This document shows, one piece after another, positions 1 through 62,163 of a stretch of DNA of 64,000 bases. Made by a program: the position numbers and the translations under genes. Numbering within the stretch: the stretch's first letter is position 1; each line of letters opens with the position of its first letter. The stretch is taken from sequence record NC_054906.1; one strand, given 5' to 3'. Source of the DNA: Enterobacteria phage RB18. Below the pieces are notes generated by a model, which worked only from the letters and a program-made list of their open reading frames with translations, was not told where the DNA came from and ran no database searches.

Positions 1-955
1 TGCTGCTAAATTAGATGCCGAAGTTAAGAAACAAATGGAAGCTGGTGTACTGGTAGAAATCGCTGAAGGCATGGCTACTTCTATCGCTGAACTTCAGGAA
101 GGTTTCAACGGTTCTACCGATAACCCATGGAATGAAATGGGCTTCCGTATCGATAAACAAGTTATCGAAGCTAAATCTCGTCAGCTGAAAGCTGCTTACT
201 CTATCGAATTAGCACAGGACCTCCGCGCTGTTCACGGTATGGATGCTGATGCTGAACTGTCTGGTATTCTGGCTACAGAAATTATGCTGGAAATCAACCG
301 CGAAGTTGTTGATTGGATTAACTACTCAGCTCAGGTTGGTAAATCTGGTATGACCCTGACTCCGGGTTCTAAAGCTGGTGTATTTGACTTCCAGGATCCG
401 ATTGATATTCGTGGTGCTCGCTGGGCAGGTGAATCCTTTAAAGCTCTGTTGTTCCAGATTGACAAAGAAGCAGTTGAAATTGCTCGTCAGACCGGTCGTG
501 GTGAAGGTAACTTCATTATCGCTTCCCGTAACGTAGTTAACGTTCTGGCTTCAGTTGATACCGGCATTTCTTATGCTGCACAGGGTCTGGCTACCGGCTT
601 TAACACTGATACTACCAAGTCAGTATTTGCTGGTGTTCTGGGTGGTAAATACCGTGTATATATCGACCAGTATGCTAAACAGGATTATTTCACTGTAGGT
701 TATAAAGGTCCGAACGAAATGGATGCTGGTATTTACTATGCTCCATATGTAGCTCTGACTCCGCTGCGTGGTTCCGATCCGAAGAACTTCCAACCGGTAA
801 TGGGATTCAAAACTCGTTACGGTATCGGTATCAACCCATTTGCAGAATCCGCTGCTCAGGCTCCGGCTTCTCGCATCCAGAGCGGTATGCCTTCTATTCT
901 GAATAGCCTTGGTAAAAACGCTTACTTTAGACGTGTATATGTTAAAGGTATCTAA
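1..955 (+). CDS. 23: Major capsid protein gp23, C-terminal portion (5' end outside window)
   Basis: ORF runs to the window edge; translation matches remembered T4 gp23 C-terminus; followed by terminator hairpin. Confidence 0.9.
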   Translation, partial: AAKLDAEVKKQMEAGVLVEIAEGMATSIAELQEGFNGSTDNPWNEMGFRIDKQVIEAKSRQLKAAYSIELAQDLRAVHGMDADAELSGILATEIMLEINREVVDWINYSAQVGKSGMTLTPGSKAGVFDFQDPIDIRGARWAGESFKALLFQIDKEAVEIARQTGRGEGNFIIASRNVVNVLASVDTGISYAAQGLATGFNTDTTKSVFAGVLGGKYRVYIDQYAKQDYFTVGYKGPNEMDAGIYYAPYVALTPLRGSDPKNFQPVMGFKTRYGIGINPFAESAAQAPASRIQSGMPSILNSLGKNAYFRRVYVKGI

Positions 956-981
956 TCTCTAACGATAGAAACACAATTTTA

Positions 982-1005
982 GGGAACCTTCGGGTTCCCT
1001 TTTTC
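982..1005 (+). terminator. Intrinsic terminator after gene 23
   Basis: gggaacc-TTCG-ggttccc stem-loop followed by T-run. Confidence 0.7.
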
Positions 1006-1667
1006 TATTTTATACGATAGCAATCAGGCATATCATCCGCATTTATCCAATTGCGAATAGTTTTAGGACTAACTTTAAAATGCTCCGCTGCGTAATCAGG
1101 ATTATCAAATTTAACGCCCTTTATACATATTGGAATAAATTTTTTAATACCACCAAGTTTTTCAGAAATAGCTTTACGATGTGAAATCGATATAGGTTTA
1201 TTTTTTCGTGGATGAACATGTGTTTTATAATATTCATTGCGCCCTTTAACTCGCTTCGCAATAGTTTCATCAGATTGCTTAACGCCTGTTTTTGCCTTTG
1301 ATATTTTTCGTTTAGCTTCCACAGTCATTCCTTCTTTTGTTCGTATTGATAACATATTACGATATGAAGGATCTTGCAAATGAACTATAACTGGATTTCC
1401 TCTGCCACCAATAGCAGCATTATAGGTATCAGTTCTCATAACGAATTCCTCATTGACTAGTAAAGCTTCCATTTTATACATCTCCTCAGATGAGGAGAAA
1501 GAATAAAGAATTTCTTTTTTAAAGTTATGAATACCATATTTTTTGATGGATTTTTTGATGTTTACGCCAGAACCCATATAACCATCGTTTTCGTCAAGAG
1601 TAGCATGAGCTCCGATGTAAATTTTTCCATTGATGATATTAGTAATTTGATATATTAAATATTTCAT
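1005..1667 (-). mobile_element. segD: GIY-YIG homing endonuclease, SegD-like (free-standing HEG between genes 23 and 24)
   Basis: N-terminal KYLIYQITNIINGKIYIG GIY-YIG motif; position between 23 and 24 as for T4 segD; start probably an internal Met with SD (track ORF extends to 1706). Confidence 0.6.
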
Positions 1668-1696
1668 TTTAAACATCGCTCCGTTTGTATATGAAT

Positions 1697-1725
1697 ATAA
1701 TATCATATTACTTTGGTCTTGTAAA
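1697..1725 (-). promoter_or_regulatory. Candidate early promoter for the segD-like gene
   Basis: TTTACA -35, 17 nt spacer, TATTAT -10 on minus strand. Confidence 0.3.
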
Positions 1726-1731
1726 TAACTT

Positions 1732-1739
1732 TATAAATA
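1732..1739 (+). promoter_or_regulatory. Late promoter (TATAAATA) for gene 24
   Basis: Exact TATAAATA about 28 nt upstream of the gene 24 ATG. Confidence 0.7.
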
Positions 1740-1766
1740 GTATTATATTTCAACAAGGAAAATACA

Positions 1767-3050
1767 ATGGCTAAAATCAACGAACTTCTGCGCGAATCAA
1801 CCACAACGAATAGCAACTCAATCGGTCGCCCAAATCTCGTTGCTTTGACTCGCGCTACCACTAAATTAATATATTCTGACATTGTAGCAACGCAAAGAAC
1901 TAATCAACCTGTTGCTGCTTTTTATGGTATCAAATACCTTAACCCAGACAATGAATTTACATTTAAAACTGGTGCTACTTACGCTGGCGAAGCTGGATAT
2001 GTAGACCGAGAACAAATCACAGAATTAACAGAAGAGTCTAAATTAACTCTCAATAAAGGCGATTTATTCAAATATAATAATATCGTTTATAAAGTATTAG
2101 AAGATACTCCATTTGCTGATATTGAAGAAAGCGACTTAGAGTTAGCTCTTCAGATTGCAATTGTTCTTTTAAAGGTTCGTCTATTTTCTGACGCAGCGTC
2201 AACAAGCAAATTTGAAAGCTCTGATAGTGAAATTGCGGATGCTAGATTCCAGATTAATAAATGGCAAACCGCAGTTAAATCTCGTAAACTTAAAACTGGC
2301 ATCACAGTTGAATTAGCACAAGATTTAGAAGCAAATGGATTCGATGCTCCTAATTTCTTGGAAGATTTGCTTGCAACTGAAATGGCAGATGAAATCAATA
2401 AAGATATTCTGCAGTCTTTGATTACAGTGTCAAAACGCTATAAAGTTACAGGAATTACTGATAGTGGATTCATCGATTTGAGTTATGCATCTGCTCCTGA
2501 AGCTGGTCGTTCATTATACCGAATGGTATGTGAAATGGTTTCGCATATCCAAAAAGAATCAACTTATACAGCAACGTTCTGTGTTGCTTCAGCTCGTGCT
2601 GCTGCGATTCTTGCTGCATCAGGTTGGTTAAAACATAAACCAGAAGATGACAAATATCTTTCACAAAATGCCTATGGGTTCTTAGCTAATGGTTTACCGC
2701 TTTATTGCGATACTAACAGCCCATTAGATTATGTAATCGTTGGCGTAGTAGAAAATATCGGTGAAAAAGAAATTGTTGGATCAATTTTCTATGCTCCGTA
2801 TACAGAAGGTCTCGACTTAGATGACCCTGAACATGTGGGTGCATTTAAAGTTGTTGTTGATCCAGAAAGCTTACAACCGTCTATCGGTTTATTAGTTAGA
2901 TATGCTTTATCAGCAAATCCTTATACCGTAGCAAAAGATGAAAAAGAAGCAAGAATAATTGACGGTGGAGACATGGATAAAATGGCGGGTCGTTCAGATT
3001 TGTCTGTTTTATTAGGTGTTAAATTACCAAAAATTATTATTGATGAATAA
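1767..3050 (+). CDS. 24: Head vertex protein gp24
   Basis: 427 aa, same length and position as T4 gp24; capsid-protein-like sequence. Confidence 0.85.
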   Translation: MAKINELLRESTTTNSNSIGRPNLVALTRATTKLIYSDIVATQRTNQPVAAFYGIKYLNPDNEFTFKTGATYAGEAGYVDREQITELTEESKLTLNKGDLFKYNNIVYKVLEDTPFADIEESDLELALQIAIVLLKVRLFSDAASTSKFESSDSEIADARFQINKWQTAVKSRKLKTGITVELAQDLEANGFDAPNFLEDLLATEMADEINKDILQSLITVSKRYKVTGITDSGFIDLSYASAPEAGRSLYRMVCEMVSHIQKESTYTATFCVASARAAAILAASGWLKHKPEDDKYLSQNAYGFLANGLPLYCDTNSPLDYVIVGVVENIGEKEIVGSIFYAPYTEGLDLDDPEHVGAFKVVVDPESLQPSIGLLVRYALSANPYTVAKDEKEARIIDGGDMDKMAGRSDLSVLLGVKLPKIIIDE

Positions 3051-3056
3051 AGCAAA

Positions 3057-3077
3057 GGGACCTTTCGGTCCCTTTTT
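3057..3077. terminator. Terminator hairpin between convergent genes 24 and rnlB
   Basis: gggacc-TTTC-ggtccc followed by T-run. Confidence 0.65.
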
Positions 3078-3079
3078 AT

Positions 3080-4084
3080 TTAGCTCACCAACTCAATCCA
3101 AGCTGGACGAAGTACATCTTGTACCATTTTAACTAATTCCTTCTTAATCAAAGAAGGATTATCCGCTTGAGTTAGAGTAATACCTTCACGAGAAGTTTCT
3201 TCCAAAATATCTTGAACAGTTAGCCCCATCACCTTTCCAAAATCCTTTGGACCAATTTCACCAATTTTAGAAATAACGTTATTTACTCGGTTTAGTGTAA
3301 CGTAACAAGCTAAAATCCCCACCAATTTGTTATCAGCTTCTGACAGTTCAACTTTAGCTTTAATAGGCTTATCAGACTTTTTCTTTTCACTAAATTTGGA
3401 ATTCTTGCATTTAATCGCTACACGATTGCGATTAGGCAGCCAAGAAGGATAACAAGGTTTCAATACATATCCTTCAGCGGTAAATACTTCGCCTTTTGCT
3501 TCGGCATTCCAAACGCATTTATTTGCATCAACTAATCCAGCATGGTCTACTGTAAAATTATAATCTTGGACAACAGAATCTAAATCATTTGGCAATTTAA
3601 TAAGCTCTTCAAATTTACCGCGACCTAAAAGTGGAGCCATTTTAAATTTAAATGTATTGCAGAATGATTCCATCATATAATCGTCGACATAAGTCACATC
3701 GCCACTTTCTGTAGTGACAATAATGTCAAATACATAAAAATCTTTATCACCATAATCGACATTCTTCTGAATGCCAGGTCCAGCGAATTCGCCAAAGACT
3801 TGATAAGATACAACCGCTGAGGTTTCCATAATATCTTGTACTGCTTTAATGGAATCAGCGTAATTCTTTAAAATAATTTCATACCCAAAGAAATCTTCAG
3901 CAGGAAGAATCGGTCCAGTACGTTTAGCGCAAGTTACTTTATCACGCTCAATAATCAATGAGAAATTTGTGCCGTGAATCTTTTCACGAGCTACCCATTC
4001 GCCGCCAGTCAATCCTAAGCTATAAAGTTTTTCAATAAATTTAGAGTTGTAATGATTTTCAAGACTGCTATACTTTTTAAACAT
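3080..4084 (-). CDS. rnlB: RNA ligase 2
   Basis: 334 aa; N-terminus [16 protein letters not shown] and KIHGTN lysine motif as in T4 Rnl2. Confidence 0.9.
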
Positions 4085-4093
4085 AATTAATCC

Positions 4094-4372
4094 TCAAAAT
4101 GTAATTTCTAACCAATCACCATCACGCTGATCACTATTAACTTTAAAGCTGAATCCTTCTTTTCTCAGCCAATCACCAATTTCTTCAGTAATCAATTTAT
4201 CACGAGCAATACAATAATAATTAAAATGTGTTTTACCTTGTTCAGCTGCTTTATTAGCAAGTTCCGAAAAATCTTTAATAAAACACTCTAGCTTAAACTG
4301 TTTACTTTTAAGTGCTTTTTCGCGCAATTGATTAGCAAAAGATTCATTTTCATAAAGATCATACTGTTCCAT
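4094..4372 (-). CDS. Hypothetical protein (T4 24.2 position)
   Basis: 92 aa ORF, syntenic. Confidence 0.5.
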   Translation of the reverse strand: MEQYDLYENESFANQLREKALKSKQFKLECFIKDFSELANKAAEQGKTHFNYYCIARDKLITEEIGDWLRKEGFSFKVNSDQRDGDWLEITF

Positions 4373-4574
4373 TTTTCACCTTTTTATTGATATGTCTTTT
4401 TCTATAGACAACTTTTTCTCGAGTTTCAAATTTATTCTTAGCAGTCATAGCTCGAGCCCATAATACAGCCACTTCTTTTGCCTGTAAGTTTAATTCACGA
4501 GCAATTTCAATGAATGGCTTTCCAGACTCATGAAGAGTAAACACCACAACCTCAGTTCTCATAATCAATCTCAT
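4359..4574 (-). CDS. Hypothetical protein (T4 24.3 position)
   Basis: 71 aa ORF, syntenic. Confidence 0.45.
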   Translation of the reverse strand: MRLIMRTEVVVFTLHESGKPFIEIARELNLQAKEVAVLWARAMTAKNKFETREKVVYRKRHINKKVKNGTV

Positions 4575-4642
4575 GTTATCGAGTTGGTGCCATTATATAC
4601 ATCATTTTCTGATTGTGTTTTGTGTGCTTTCAAAATGAAGAA

Positions 4643-4658
4643 AGGGGCCGAAGCCCCT
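4643..4658 (-). terminator. Terminator hairpin after hoc
   Basis: ggggc-CGAA-gcccc with T-rich tract on minus strand. Confidence 0.6.
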
Positions 4659-4662
4659 ATGA

Positions 4663-5793
4663 TTATGGATAGGTATAGATGATACCAGTTTCTAAAGCAG
4701 TTTTATGAATGATGTATCCATTACGCGATTCTTGGACATCAACTTCTGGATAGTCTTTCATCATCTTCTGAAGAGTGTAACGATGCAAGTAGTACTTACT
4801 ATCTGGATCGTCAGTTTTCCAATCTTTACCTTCTTCGGTCATTTTTTGGATTTCATCCATAACCCACCAACCGCACCAGATGTAAGCTGAAGTACGATGT
4901 GGAAGAGGATGAACATAAGGTAATTCACCTTCTGGTTCTGGAGCAACTTTATCAGTTACCTGAACTTGACCTTCTGCTGTAATAGTTTTGCTATCATAAT
5001 CAGTAGCAGTAACAATTGCAGTAACTTCAATAGTTTGACTTCCAATAGATGAGGTATCAACGGTATATACATTAGTTGACCCTTCTACAGGAGAAGAATC
5101 TTTCTTCCATGAATACTCAATTTGCGCTTCTTCTGGAGCATCAGTGACATTAGCGGTAAATGTAGCCGAAGCATCTTGCTGAACGTTAATAGAAGGAGGA
5201 GTCAATGTAACCTGTGGATTCATTGTCTTCTTATTAACTGTTAATGATACTTCATTAGAAGTAACTTCCTTTGCATCATAATCTGCCGCGGTTACTTGAG
5301 CCACACACTTAATTCTTTTTACTCCGCTTTCGGCAGGAGTGTAATTGAACGTAGCGTTAGTTGCTTCGCCCACAGGAGAATCATCTACATACCATTGATA
5401 AGTAGCGTTTGCGCCCGCTGGCTGCGAAGCTAAAGCGGCAGTAAATTCAACAGCTGTTCCGATTACTCCAGCAGCAGGGCTATCAGGAGTTACAGCCAAT
5501 GTAGTCGTCTGTGTCTTATTTTGAACTGTGATAGTTGTAGTAGCTTCTGCTGTTTCAGCTTCAGCTTCTGGAACTGTATTTGTTGCAACTACTTTAATAG
5601 TCTTTTGTCCAGCAGGTCCTTTTAATACATAATCAAAAGTTTCTTCAGCTCCATCTTGTGGAACATTATCTACAGTCCAAGCATATGTAATAGGTCCATC
5701 TCCAGTTTGACCACTGGGTGTAGCAGTAAACTGCTTGGTTTCATCAATAACCCCTGTCGGTGTTTTAGGAGTTATATCAACTGTAAAAGCCAT
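4663..5793 (-). CDS. hoc: Highly immunogenic outer capsid protein Hoc
   Basis: 376 aa, Thr/Val-rich Ig-like repeats; length and position as T4 Hoc. Confidence 0.85.
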   Translation of the reverse strand: MAFTVDITPKTPTGVIDETKQFTATPSGQTGDGPITYAWTVDNVPQDGAEETFDYVLKGPAGQKTIKVVATNTVPEAEAETAEATTTITVQNKTQTTTLAVTPDSPAAGVIGTAVEFTAALASQPAGANATYQWYVDDSPVGEATNATFNYTPAESGVKRIKCVAQVTAADYDAKEVTSNEVSLTVNKKTMNPQVTLTPPSINVQQDASATFTANVTDAPEEAQIEYSWKKDSSPVEGSTNVYTVDTSSIGSQTIEVTAIVTATDYDSKTITAEGQVQVTDKVAPEPEGELPYVHPLPHRTSAYIWCGWWVMDEIQKMTEEGKDWKTDDPDSKYYLHRYTLQKMMKDYPEVDVQESRNGYIIHKTALETGIIYTYP

Positions 5794-5802
5794 AAGTTAT
5801 CC

Positions 5803-6483
5803 TTATTTTAATGTTACGAAAGAAGAATTGCGTGTTTCACGAATTAAAACTGATCCGTCACGGTTAATGTAATAAATTAAGCTAAATAAAGTTTGGTGTG
5901 CTGACGCATGCTCAAAACTTGTTGGGTGAGATTTCCAATCCGGAGTTTCAGCAATCCATTGATAAATCCACCAAGGAACAGTACAGAATCCTGGATTTTT
6001 TCCAATCAACTGAAGATTCGGGCTAAAGTTTTCCGGAAGAGTAAATACAGACGGCTTTTCAGATTCAATAATCTCAGCTACAGCCTGTTCAAATTTTTCT
6101 TCAACAAAAGGAGTATCTTCAATCAAAACATCGGTATTTTCAGGAATTTTATCCGTTTCTACTACTTCAATTTTAATGTCAGATTTAACCGGAGAATCAA
6201 TCAAAAGTGCTGCTTCTGGATTGACTTCTTCATCGTCATATTTTAATCCCTCTGCAGCATCAGCAGCATCAATTAAGTCTTTAATAGATAACCCATCAGT
6301 CTCTGGCATAGGTTCACTAGCGAGCTTCTGGAGGGCTTCTTCAATATCAACAACGATATTATCAAAAGATTTATTCTTTTTGACCTTTATACCAAACTGT
6401 TCAGCATATTCAGCTAATTTAGCTTTAGCTTCTTTGTTATCATCAAGAGCCTTCAGCTCTGCAATATAATCTTTATCTATCAT
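5803..6483 (-). CDS. inh: Inh-like protein (inhibitor of prohead protease), acidic
   Basis: 226 aa acidic ORF between hoc and uvsW; assigned by synteny. Confidence 0.5.
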   Translation of the reverse strand: MIDKDYIAELKALDDNKEAKAKLAEYAEQFGIKVKKNKSFDNIVVDIEEALQKLASEPMPETDGLSIKDLIDAADAAEGLKYDDEEVNPEAALLIDSPVKSDIKIEVVETDKIPENTDVLIEDTPFVEEKFEQAVAEIIESEKPSVFTLPENFSPNLQLIGKNPGFCTVPWWIYQWIAETPDWKSHPTSFEHASAHQTLFSLIYYINRDGSVLIRETRNSSFVTLK

Positions 6484-6496
6484 AATATTTCCTCAG

Positions 6497-6504
6497 TATA
6501 AATA
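6497..6504 (+). promoter_or_regulatory. Late promoter (TATAAATA) for uvsW
   Basis: Exact TATAAATA about 30 nt upstream of the uvsW ATG. Confidence 0.7.
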
Positions 6505-6533
6505 TAGATATATTTATTACATGGTATTTAGAC

Positions 6534-8045
6534 ATGACTGACATTAAAGTACATTTTTATGATTTTAGTCACGTGAGAATTGATTGTGAAGAAAGTACAT
6601 TTCATGAACTCCGTGATTTCTTTAGCTTTGAAGCTGATGGGTATCGTTTTAATCCGAAATACAAATATGGCCACTGGGATGGACGAATCCGTCTTTTAGA
6701 TTATAATCGTCTTCTTCCATTCGGCTTAGTCGGGCAAATTAAAAAGTTCTGTGATAACTTTGGCTATAAAGCCTGGATTGACCCACAAATTAACGAAAAA
6801 GAAGAATTATCAAGAAAAGATTTTGATGAATGGCTTTCTAAATTAGAAATCTATTCAGGAAATAAAAGAATTGAACCACACTGGTATCAAAAAGATGCAG
6901 TGTTCGAAGGATTAGTTAATCGTCGTAGAATTCTTAATCTTCCAACATCCGCTGGTAAATCGTTAATTCAAGCTTTGCTTGCGCGATATTATTTGGAAAA
7001 TTATGAAGGTAAAATTCTTATCATTGTTCCAACAACTGCTTTAACAACTCAGATGGCTGATGACTTCGTTGACTATCGTTTATTCAGTCATGCAATGATA
7101 AAGAAAATTGGTGGCGGAGCATCAAAAGATGATAAATATAAAAATGATGCACCAGTTGTTGTTGGTACATGGCAAACTGTAGTAAAACAACCAAAAGAAT
7201 GGTTCTCACAGTTTGGAATGATGATGAATGATGAATGCCATCTTGCTACAGGAAAAAGTATTTCATCTATCATATCAGGTTTAAATAACTGCATGTTCAA
7301 ATTCGGTTTGTCTGGTTCATTACGTGATGGCAAAGCCAATATCATGCAGTATGTTGGAATGTTTGGTGAAATATTTAAGCCAGTAACGACTTCTAAATTA
7401 ATGGAAGATGGACAAGTAACTGAGCTAAAAATTAATAGTATTTTTCTTCGCTATCCCGATGAGTTCACTACTAAATTAAAGGGAAAAACTTATCAAGAAG
7501 AAATAAAAATTATTACTGGGCTTAGTAAAAGAAATAAATGGATCGCTAAATTAGCTATTAAGCTTGCGCAAAAAGATGAAAACGCTTTTGTCATGTTTAA
7601 ACATGTATCACATGGTAAAGCTATTTTCGATTTAATTAAAAATGAATACGATAAAGTTTATTACGTATCAGGGGAAGTTGATACCGAAACCCGCAATATA
7701 ATGAAAACCTTAGCTGAAAATGGTAAAGGAATAATTATAGTAGCTAGTTATGGTGTATTTTCTACTGGTATTTCAGTTAAAAATCTGCATCACGTTGTTT
7801 TAGCGCACGGTGTTAAATCAAAAATCATTGTATTACAAACAATCGGTCGTGTATTACGTAAGCATGGTTCTAAGACAATAGCAACCGTCTGGGACCTCAT
7901 AGATGATTGTGGCGTTAAGCCAAAATCTGCTAATACGAAAAAGAAATATGTTCATTTGAACTATCTTTTAAAACACGGCATTGATCGTATTCAGCGCTAC
8001 GCAGATGAAAAATTTAATTACGTAATGAAAACAGTTAATTTATAA
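6534..8045 (+). CDS. uvsW: UvsW RNA-DNA / DNA helicase (main 503-aa reading frame)
   Basis: SF2 helicase motifs (PTSAGKS Walker A, DECH box); T4 uvsW position. Confidence 0.85.
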   Translation: MTDIKVHFYDFSHVRIDCEESTFHELRDFFSFEADGYRFNPKYKYGHWDGRIRLLDYNRLLPFGLVGQIKKFCDNFGYKAWIDPQINEKEELSRKDFDEWLSKLEIYSGNKRIEPHWYQKDAVFEGLVNRRRILNLPTSAGKSLIQALLARYYLENYEGKILIIVPTTALTTQMADDFVDYRLFSHAMIKKIGGGASKDDKYKNDAPVVVGTWQTVVKQPKEWFSQFGMMMNDECHLATGKSISSIISGLNNCMFKFGLSGSLRDGKANIMQYVGMFGEIFKPVTTSKLMEDGQVTELKINSIFLRYPDEFTTKLKGKTYQEEIKIITGLSKRNKWIAKLAIKLAQKDENAFVMFKHVSHGKAIFDLIKNEYDKVYYVSGEVDTETRNIMKTLAENGKGIIIVASYGVFSTGISVKNLHHVVLAHGVKSKIIVLQTIGRVLRKHGSKTIATVWDLIDDCGVKPKSANTKKKYVHLNYLLKHGIDRIQRYADEKFNYVMKTVNL

Positions 8046-8070
8046 GGGCTTCGGCCCTTTGGAGAAAAAG

Positions 8071-8301
8071 ATGTTACTAGAATTTAAACAATTTCTTTAT
8101 GAAGCTTCTATTGATGAATTTATGGGTAAAATTGCCTCTTGTCAAACATTAGAAGGTCTAGAAGAACTTGAAGCTTATTATAAGAAAAGAGTCAAAGAAA
8201 CTGAATTAAAAGATACTGATGACATCTCAGTCAGAGATGCTTTGGCAGGAAAAAGAGCTGAATTAGAAGATTCAGACGATGAAGTAGAAGAAAGCTTTTA
8301 A
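8071..8301 (+). CDS. uvsW.1: UvsW.1, probably the C-terminal part of UvsW (see findings)
   Basis: 76-80 aa ORF directly downstream in +1 frame; track ORF begins at TTG 8059. Confidence 0.6.
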   Translation: MLLEFKQFLYEASIDEFMGKIASCQTLEGLEELEAYYKKRVKETELKDTDDISVRDALAGKRAELEDSDDEVEESF

Positions 8302-25975: not shown

Positions 25976-26005
25976 ATACTATCACAAAGGAACCATACTG
26001 TAAAC
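25976..26005 (-). promoter_or_regulatory. T4-type early promoter
   Basis: Minus strand GTTTACA, 17 nt, TAGTAT. Confidence 0.45.
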
Positions 26006-40552: not shown

Positions 40553-40584
40553 CTATAGTATCACTACCATAGCCTGTTGTAAAC
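40553..40584 (-). promoter_or_regulatory. T4-type early promoter
   Basis: Minus strand GTTTACA, spacer, ATACTATAG. Confidence 0.45.
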
Positions 40585-41543: not shown

Positions 41544-41575
41544 GTATAGTACCATGGAAGAACAGGGATGTAAAC
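41544..41575 (-). promoter_or_regulatory. T4-type early promoter
   Basis: Minus strand GTTTACA, 17 nt, GGTACTATAC. Confidence 0.5.
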
Positions 41576-56233: not shown

Positions 56234-56386
56234 TCAATTAGTTGACTTTGTTATAATATCATCAGACGCTTGATTTGTAAACTGGTCTGTGTTATTTTCT
56301 TCAAAAATTTTTTCTACGAATTCCTTGAACGACTCACGTTCCTGAGCTACATTATGCTCGATTACCATTTCAAGATTATGACTCAT
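56234..56386 (-). CDS. Small hypothetical protein (50 aa)
   Basis: Hand-found ORF with ATGA overlap to upstream gene; not in track. Confidence 0.3.
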   Translation of the reverse strand: MSHNLEMVIEHNVAQERESFKEFVEKIFEENNTDQFTNQASDDIITKSTN

Positions 56387-58715: not shown

Positions 58716-58747
58716 GTATAGTACCACAGTATGCTTTGGTTGTAAAC
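58716..58747 (-). promoter_or_regulatory. T4-type early promoter for motA
   Basis: Minus strand GTTTACA, 17 nt, GGTACTATAC. Confidence 0.55.
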
Positions 58748-61852: not shown

Positions 61853-61884
61853 TAATAGTACCACGGAAGAACAGTCTTGTAAAC
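61853..61884 (-). promoter_or_regulatory. T4-type early promoter
   Basis: Minus strand GTTTACA, 17 nt, GGTACTATTAC. Confidence 0.45.
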
Positions 61885-62131: not shown

Positions 62132-62163
62132 GTATAGTACCACGGTCCTTGTGGTATGTAAAC
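62132..62163 (-). promoter_or_regulatory. T4-type early promoter
   Basis: Minus strand GTTTACA, 17 nt, GGTACTATAC. Confidence 0.5.

Follow-up and report, generated by a model that had tools for sequence, protein, structure and literature searches.

What is the gene that lies between capsid genes 23 and 24 and is read against both of them, how does it come to be expressed, and does it, as a preliminary description suggested, serve to exclude the 23/24 markers of other phages in mixed infections? The window considered here, by which is meant the whole analysed stretch of 64,000 nucleotides of Enterobacteria phage RB18 (NC_054906.1), offers a set of comparisons from which these questions can be answered in turn. 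The locus is laid out as follows.

35 to 955, plus strand: 3′ part of gene 23 (major capsid protein), the left neighbour, an open reading frame identified by the T4 annotation
981 to 1005, plus strand: intrinsic terminator of gene 23, a GGGAACC-TTCG-GGTTCCC stem-loop (981 to 1000) and T run
1005 to 1667, minus strand: segD coding sequence, 220 amino acids when read from its conserved start, with the TAA stop codon at 1007-1005
Parts of the segD protein: GIY-YIG domain at residues 1 to about 90, then a NUMOD3-like linker and a C-terminal helix-turn-helix
1732 to 1739, plus strand: late promoter of gene 24, TATAAATA, the same motif being annotated as a late promoter in segD-less relatives
1767 to 3050, plus strand: gene 24 (capsid vertex protein, 427 amino acids), the right neighbour
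3054 to 3075: perfect hairpin, AAAGGGACC-TTTC-GGTCCCTTT, at the place where genes 24 and rnlB converge, with a terminator score on both strands
3080 to 4084, minus strand: open reading frame of 334 amino acids beyond gene 24

Minus-strand positions 1005 to 1706 form a single uninterrupted open reading frame, of 233 amino acids when counted from its first ATG, with further in-frame ATGs at 1676 (223 amino acids, the start annotated in T4) and at 1667 (220 amino acids, beginning MKYLIYQ). Its stop codon adjoins the gene 23 terminator, which scored as such on the plus strand only (on the minus strand the hairpin has no T run after it). At its other end, 6 nt separate the -35 hexamer of the putative segD promoter from the late promoter of gene 24, TATAAATA, which points the opposite way. 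When positions 900 to 1800 of the window were compared by megablast with 50,697 phage records, the full-length matches were 98.9-99.8% identical among the matches listed, those to T4, T6, PST and PP01, at 99.4-99.8%, and to ECML-134 included, and the annotations underlying them were the major capsid protein (23), the segD homing endonuclease and the capsid vertex protein (24). The protein read from the ATG at 1676 and T4 SegD (AAD42657.2, UniProt P19895) are identical at 223 of 223 residues. At the level of DNA the window and T4 differ at 5 nt in 901 bases (99.4% identity): two of the differences are silent changes in the coding sequence, two fall in the 5′ leader, one of these just past the -10 element (TATTATAAT in T4, TATTATATT in the window), and the last is a 1-nt change in the T run. 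Neighbours, orientation, terminator and upstream region are also the same as in T4, where the order of genes (AF158101.6) is 23, segD on the minus strand, 24 and rnlB.

Since its protein is identical to T4 SegD, the gene is segD itself, which is to say more than the "SegD-like" of the preliminary description; that account was right in recognising a free-standing GIY-YIG endonuclease gene and in placing it antisense to the flanking capsid genes, as the T4 annotation also does. By its sequence, in its usual place and orientation, the feature is thus the already described segD of a T4-type phage (Tequatrovirus). An annotated and biochemically studied T4 gene with an identical protein has small discovery value, and what can be added to it here are two refinements of the annotation, one of the promoter and the other of the start codon.

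The phage represented in the window is not T4: its Hoc protein is 89% identical to T4 Hoc, and a tblastn search of positions 1-64000 with T4 proteins found no counterpart of T4 segE, segG, I-TevI, mobE or I-TevIII. In keeping with the absence of segE from its place, inh is directly followed by uvsW at ~5806-8298.

The account that best explains the locus as a whole, and in which we have considerable confidence, is that segD is a selfish mobile gene, I-TevI-like in its protein, with a T4-early-type promoter of its own and a start at ATG 1667. From the present analysis this account draws on sequence identity, architecture, the statistics and conservation of the promoter, conservation of the start, distribution, and the lack of linked polymorphism in the flanks; from published work it draws on the early RNA class, detection of the protein, the SegD activity of extracts from infected cells, and the reported absence of homing. 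We infer that transcription really does use this promoter, and where exactly it starts.

The family to which the protein belongs is recognised by several models at different depths. SegD passes the SegE_GIY-YIG model PF19835 (27.8 bits, cutoff 25) and falls just under the threshold of the general GIY-YIG model PF01541 (19.1 against a cutoff of 22.6); the NCBIfam model of group I intron endonucleases, TIGR01453, is a near miss (55.8 bits against 56.05, with residues 5-212 of 220 aligned). Weak Pfam matches to NUMOD3 and to a helix-turn-helix lie in the C-terminal half, and in PHROGs the protein falls into phrog_314, homing endonuclease (E 5e-57). The gene is not inside a group I intron: it is intergenic, extending from a terminator to a late promoter, and the segD-less allele of the region is a simple 83-nt spacer.

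BLASTP aligns residues 1-211 of SegD with residues 1-236 of I-TevI, the endonuclease of the T4 td group I intron (E 5e-8, 25% identity). The two proteins have the same full-length layout, with the GIY-YIG domain at the N-terminus and, at the C-terminus, a DNA-binding module in which both carry the pattern '..GV.FD....AA.HFK.S'. A sequence search of the PDB gave no match to the catalytic domain; its sole match, a weak one (E 0.43), joined the C-terminal part of SegD to the I-TevI DNA-binding domain 1i3j. Structures of the I-TevI catalytic domain are those of PDB entries 1MK0 and 1LN0. SegD and I-TevI also differ: one is free-standing and the other intron-encoded; the zinc-finger insertion of I-TevI is missing from SegD, where it corresponds to a gap in the BLASTP alignment; and segD has an apparent early-type promoter, whereas I-TevI is expressed from a late promoter according to the 2010 review by Edgell, Gibb and Belfort (PMC2988022). 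SegD is probably a site-specific DNA endonuclease, in which a catalytic GIY-YIG domain is tethered to a NUMOD3/helix-turn-helix DNA-binding part.

An alignment of eight sequences (SegD, I-TevI, SegE, SegG and four SegD homologues from other genera) bears on whether the catalytic core is kept. Y6 of the GIY element (LIYQ), Y17 and G19 of the YIG element (KIYIG) and Y82 of the distal YN motif are invariant, and N83 of the latter, the counterpart of I-TevI N90, is kept in seven of the eight, SegG having Gln. E67 is conserved in the six sequences of the SegD/SegE clade and comes within one column of I-TevI E75; BLASTP pairs SegD E73, not E67, with that residue. I-TevI R27 falls into a gap opposite the segment GAHATxDxNDxYMGSG of the SegD clade. 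The preliminary description had named loss of the catalytic residues, the mark of a pseudogene, as the finding that would tell against its reading, and that loss is not seen: Y6, Y17, G19, a conserved Glu and N83 are all present.

The proposal that segD is a decaying remnant with no functional product, for which one might cite the Arg equivalent to R27 that cannot be aligned, the two curated models (PF01541 and TIGR01453) that are missed by so little and the poor Shine-Dalgarno spacing at the start annotated in T4, is extremely improbable. Against it stand an open reading frame that is intact in six of six segD+ copies examined (with pN/pS of 0.07-0.39, on few substitutions), conservation of the Tyr, Tyr, Gly, Glu and Asn core residues across genera, detection of the SegD protein by mass spectrometry, and a SegD activity that was 'easily detected' in extracts of T4-infected cells (PMC2330249). 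The protein of the window being identical to this experimentally active enzyme, the question of a pseudogene is settled.

The choice of start codon turns on two elements of the leader.

1668 to 1676, minus strand: three extra codons (MFK) of the 223-amino-acid product in the T4 GenBank annotation
1679 to 1682, minus strand: Shine-Dalgarno GGAG, conserved in the six segD+ phages and in CGG4-1

GGAG is 2 nt from the ATG at 1676, a closeness to the annotated start that the 2010 review (PMC2988022) also notes, and 11 nt from the ATG at 1667, which is more than the optimal distance. Among the six segD+ phages, ATG 1667 is invariant, and codon 1676 is GTG in three (CJY920, SHFML-11 and BCPEco_001), two of whose records annotate the 220-amino-acid product. 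Distant tblastn alignments all begin at residue 4 of annotated SegD, and the homologues start M-x-Y-L-I-Y. On this pattern of conservation ATG 1676 is probably not the real start, and translation most likely starts at ATG 1667 (MKYLIYQ, 220 amino acids). The preliminary description had put the start at the KYLIYQ motif, and this is where homologues begin. The conserved start would then be the second ATG, correcting the start given in GenBank and UniProt (223 amino acids). The two alternatives predict different N-terminal peptides of SegD, MKYLIYQITNIINGK as opposed to MFKMKYLIYQ. When the predicted 5′ leader was folded together with the start of the coding region, the structure was no stronger than chance would give (z 0.14), and there is no evidence for a hairpin sequestering the ribosome-binding site of the kind that has been reported for other T4 endonuclease genes.

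How the gene is transcribed is the subject of the other refinement. The elements that come into question are these.

1697 to 1725, minus strand: putative T4-early-type sigma-70 promoter of segD, proposed from motif statistics and cross-genus conservation
25976-26004, 40555-40583, 41546-41574, 56253-56281, 58718-58746, 61855-61883 and 62134-62162, all minus strand: the seven other exact sites of the same pattern in the window

The segD site consists of a -35 hexamer TTTACA (1725-1720), a 17-nt spacer, a TGn extension of the -10 element (1705-1703) and a -10 hexamer TATTAT (1702-1697), the two hexamers and their spacing being exactly as the preliminary description had given them, and its -10 region, TATGATATTAT, agrees at 10 of 11 positions with the published early motif TGTG(A/G)TA(C/T)(A/T)AT. 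It lies in non-coding DNA on the minus strand, which is the early-transcribed one, and from the end of its -10 element it is 21 nt to ATG 1676 and 30 nt to ATG 1667. Upstream of segD the sequence, read by eye, has no MotA box (TGCTTtA) and no TATAAATA on the minus strand.

A generic sigma-70 scan of positions 800-4700, which are 3.9 kb of AT-rich DNA, gave 15 sites against 14.9 in shuffled sequence, and so no excess; the segD site was one of three that matched at 10 of 12 positions. A scan that performs at the level of chance neither supports nor rejects the promoter, and a pattern specific to T4 early promoters was used instead. In the 64-kb window TTTACA-N14-TGnTAnnAT has 8 matches where 0.02 would be expected (an enrichment of ~400-fold), and all eight are on the minus strand. 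Five of the seven sites other than that of segD are non-coding and 23-42 nt upstream of orthologues of T4 30.8, frd.1, frd.3, asiA and motA, and one more is 150 nt upstream of an open reading frame that maps to the ndd.2a/ndd.3 region of T4. The remaining site, at 62134-62162, has no minus-strand open reading frame of at least 50 amino acids within 400 nt downstream, and only a very short one after a GGAG. AsiA and MotA count among the early products in the description of PMC2988021, and the seven sites are presumably early promoters. A looser version of the early pattern matches the window 14 times against 2.05 expected, and one of these looser matches precedes the cd.2 orthologue by 30 nt, in agreement with the position of the early promoter Pe133295, located between cd.2 and cd.3 in the T4 record.

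Comparison with other genera extends the argument to SegD homologues that lie antisense in the 23/24 gap of CGG4-1 (Gelderlandvirus, 61% protein identity), AV114 (Mosigvirus, 58%) and IME08 (Dhakavirus, 56%). Upstream of these cassettes are TTTACA-accataggatattatga-TAAAAT in CGG4-1, TTTACA-gcaaggttatcacatgt-TACTAT in IME08 and TTTACA-cacaaaaagcgtcgtgt-TACTAT in AV114. The -35 hexamer, the 17-nt spacing, TGn and TAnnAT are kept in all three, and the spacers are largely unrelated in sequence; AV114 and IME08 are closely related and were counted as one lineage in judging the conservation of the promoter. The AV114 and IME08 cassettes differ from segD of the window in having an extra open reading frame of 88-93 amino acids (phrog_6003) between promoter and seg gene, which is found at the following places.

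AV114, 1377-1643 of our record L003, minus strand: phrog_6003 open reading frame
IME08, 416-697 of our record L006, plus strand: phrog_6003 open reading frame

The 2010 review (Edgell, Gibb and Belfort; PMC2988022) reports that bioinformatic searches found no segD-specific promoter and assumes that transcript levels are very low. Its authors take the view that segD has no promoter of its own and depends wholly on read-through, early or middle transcripts begun upstream of rnlB, 24.2 or inh crossing gene 24 in antisense to reach it; TTTACA-17-TATTAT would then be a chance occurrence in AT-rich DNA, a notion with which the outcome of the generic sigma-70 scan (no better than shuffles) is consistent. 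Time-resolved omics of T4 infection assign segD to the early class of RNA and to the middle class of protein, and the level of SegD protein climbs through infection (PMC9697503, supplements). The genes upstream, rnlB, 24.2 and 24.3, however, belong to the early RNA class as well, so that the class data alone are compatible with read-through. We nevertheless regard dependence on read-through as quite unlikely. The T4-early motif is not a commonplace of AT-rich DNA, being strand-specific as well as so strongly enriched that the segD site is one of only eight; the geometry of the segD site is the same as that of the sites upstream of motA and asiA; the motif has been conserved in three other genera although the spacers have diverged; and read-through transcripts would need to pass the bidirectional terminator at 3054-3075.

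The early-type promoter of segD is, in our assessment, very probably real: it is the motif statistics and the cross-genus conservation, together with the published early RNA class, that speak for the promoter put forward in the preliminary description. As it appears, a bona fide and conserved early-type promoter corrects the 2010 review (PMC2988022) on this point. In the mechanism that we propose, segD would be transcribed by unmodified host sigma-70 RNA polymerase from TTTACA-N14-TGaTATTAT (1725-1697), and we predict a +1 position near 1690 of the window, which corresponds to 107,246 of T4, on the minus strand. Having an early promoter of its own would account for the ready detection of SegD protein and activity in infection.

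The distribution of the cassette was followed with positions 600-2100 of the window as query, and it is sporadic. The whole region is present in 51 of ~500 closely related records; in ~450 records with flanks that are 95-99% identical, the matched span is 773 bases as against 1501, the 23-24 spacer being 728 bp shorter. In this empty allele the 83-nt spacer runs from the stop codon through a terminator (GGGACC-TTCG-GGTCCC) and TATAAATA to the gene 24 ATG. The occupied allele has a ~730-bp cassette between the GGGAACC-TTCG-GGTTCCC terminator and TATAAATA at 1732-1739, and the short intergenic stretches on both sides of the cassette have diverged from the empty allele. The boundaries of the alleles were read by eye, since in the MAFFT output the right flank of segD-less alleles was out of place. 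Patchy occurrence, combined with the presence of related cassettes in the same gap of other genera, argues that segD is a selfish mobile gene, and the evolutionary pattern points to past mobility into the 23/24 gap. A record named as that of a T4 derivative, LR597660.1 ('Escherichia phage T4_ev151'), has the empty spacer between flanks that are 98.9% identical; if this phage arose from T4 by recombination, then segD was lost and not preferentially inherited.

The flanks were compared in six segD+ and five segD- Tequatroviruses. Within the last 950 nt of gene 23 and the 2.8 kb that start at the gene 24 ATG there is no fixed difference between segD+ and segD- phages, and the 190-200 nt that adjoin the cassette have 0-9 differing positions. 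The lack of any fixed difference implies that the coding flanks hold no sequence-immune donor allele. Among the six segD+ phages, the flanks differ from the window at ~1x to ~4x the rate of segD, the cassette being the less diverse. Divergence is also patchy: FL33 has 48-70 mismatches per 200 nt in the part of rnlB that lies 1600-2200 nt past the gene 24 ATG, and T4 has 33-34 mismatches per bin beyond 2600 nt from that ATG (the last bin comprising ~40 alignment columns), with the sequence around these patches otherwise 95-99% identical. The 23/24 neighbourhood is a mosaic shaped by recombination.

SegD reportedly recognises a site of 16 bp whose sequence is the same in phages with and without segD, and the absence of segD-linked polymorphism in the flanks is consistent with such an identity of sites and with the published lack of homing. 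These observations bear on the proposal that SegD is active in homing, cleaving the DNA of co-infecting phages without segD near 23/24 and thereby favouring inheritance of the 23/24 region (marker exclusion), as SegB, SegC, SegE, SegF and SegG do at their own loci. According to Sokolov et al. 2018, T4 SegD does not initiate homing, and a paper citing that work says that neither homing nor recombination occurred at a SegD site inserted into rII. One can set on the other side the sporadic distribution of the gene, the lower diversity of the cassette relative to its flanks in the six segD+ phages, and the fact that cassettes of the SegD clade have settled in the 23/24 gap of at least five genera, in one orientation or the other, which implies targeting of the gap in the past. 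With that report, and with zero fixed differences between six segD+ and five segD- phages across the 950 nt compared in gene 23 and the 2.8 kb that begin with gene 24, current homing by SegD strikes us as quite unlikely, and the marker exclusion of the 23/24 region envisaged in the preliminary description is not supported. Past mobility of a selfish gene is the reading that we retain.

The other free-standing GIY-YIG genes of T4, those of SegB, SegC, SegE, SegF and SegG, resemble segD in lying in intergenic gaps beside essential genes and in their sporadic distribution; in the case of SegE the likeness extends to an N-terminal domain that is 46% identical to that of SegD. All five are listed as demonstrated homing endonucleases, with genes oriented as their neighbours are, and the endonuclease-specific promoters found for free-standing genes are, according to the 2010 review (PMC2988022), middle or late, never early. 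In contrast, segD is antisense to its neighbours, has an apparent early-type promoter and is reported not to home.

Cassettes of the SegD clade, found in the 23/24 gap of at least five genera, stand there in either orientation. In GAP161 (Pseudotevenvirus) the SegD homologue in the 23/24 gap, 41% identical, is in the sense orientation (590-760 of our record L007), with the terminator of gene 23 and a late-promoter motif, TATAAATA, immediately in front of it. The Pseudotevenvirus cassette (GAP161/RB16), sense and with a late TATAAATA, thus differs from segD of the Tequatroviruses, antisense and with an early-type promoter. It is conceivable, and we offer it tentatively as less probable than not, that SegD-clade cassettes may still be mobile on an evolutionary scale and may be targeted to the junction of terminator and late promoter between 23 and 24, a conserved early promoter serving to provide the nuclease ahead of replication. 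In that case segD would stand alone among the homing-type genes of T4 in having an early promoter, and the T4 crosses in which homing was not seen would reflect suppression in vivo or identity of the targets, not loss of function. This clade has occupied the gap repeatedly in five genera, and T4 SegD is reported as non-homing.

One more gene bears the name. In RB7 a GIY-YIG gene that is 32% identical and called 'segD' is found at another locus, between nrdD and nrdG, and it follows that the name segD is loosely used in database records.
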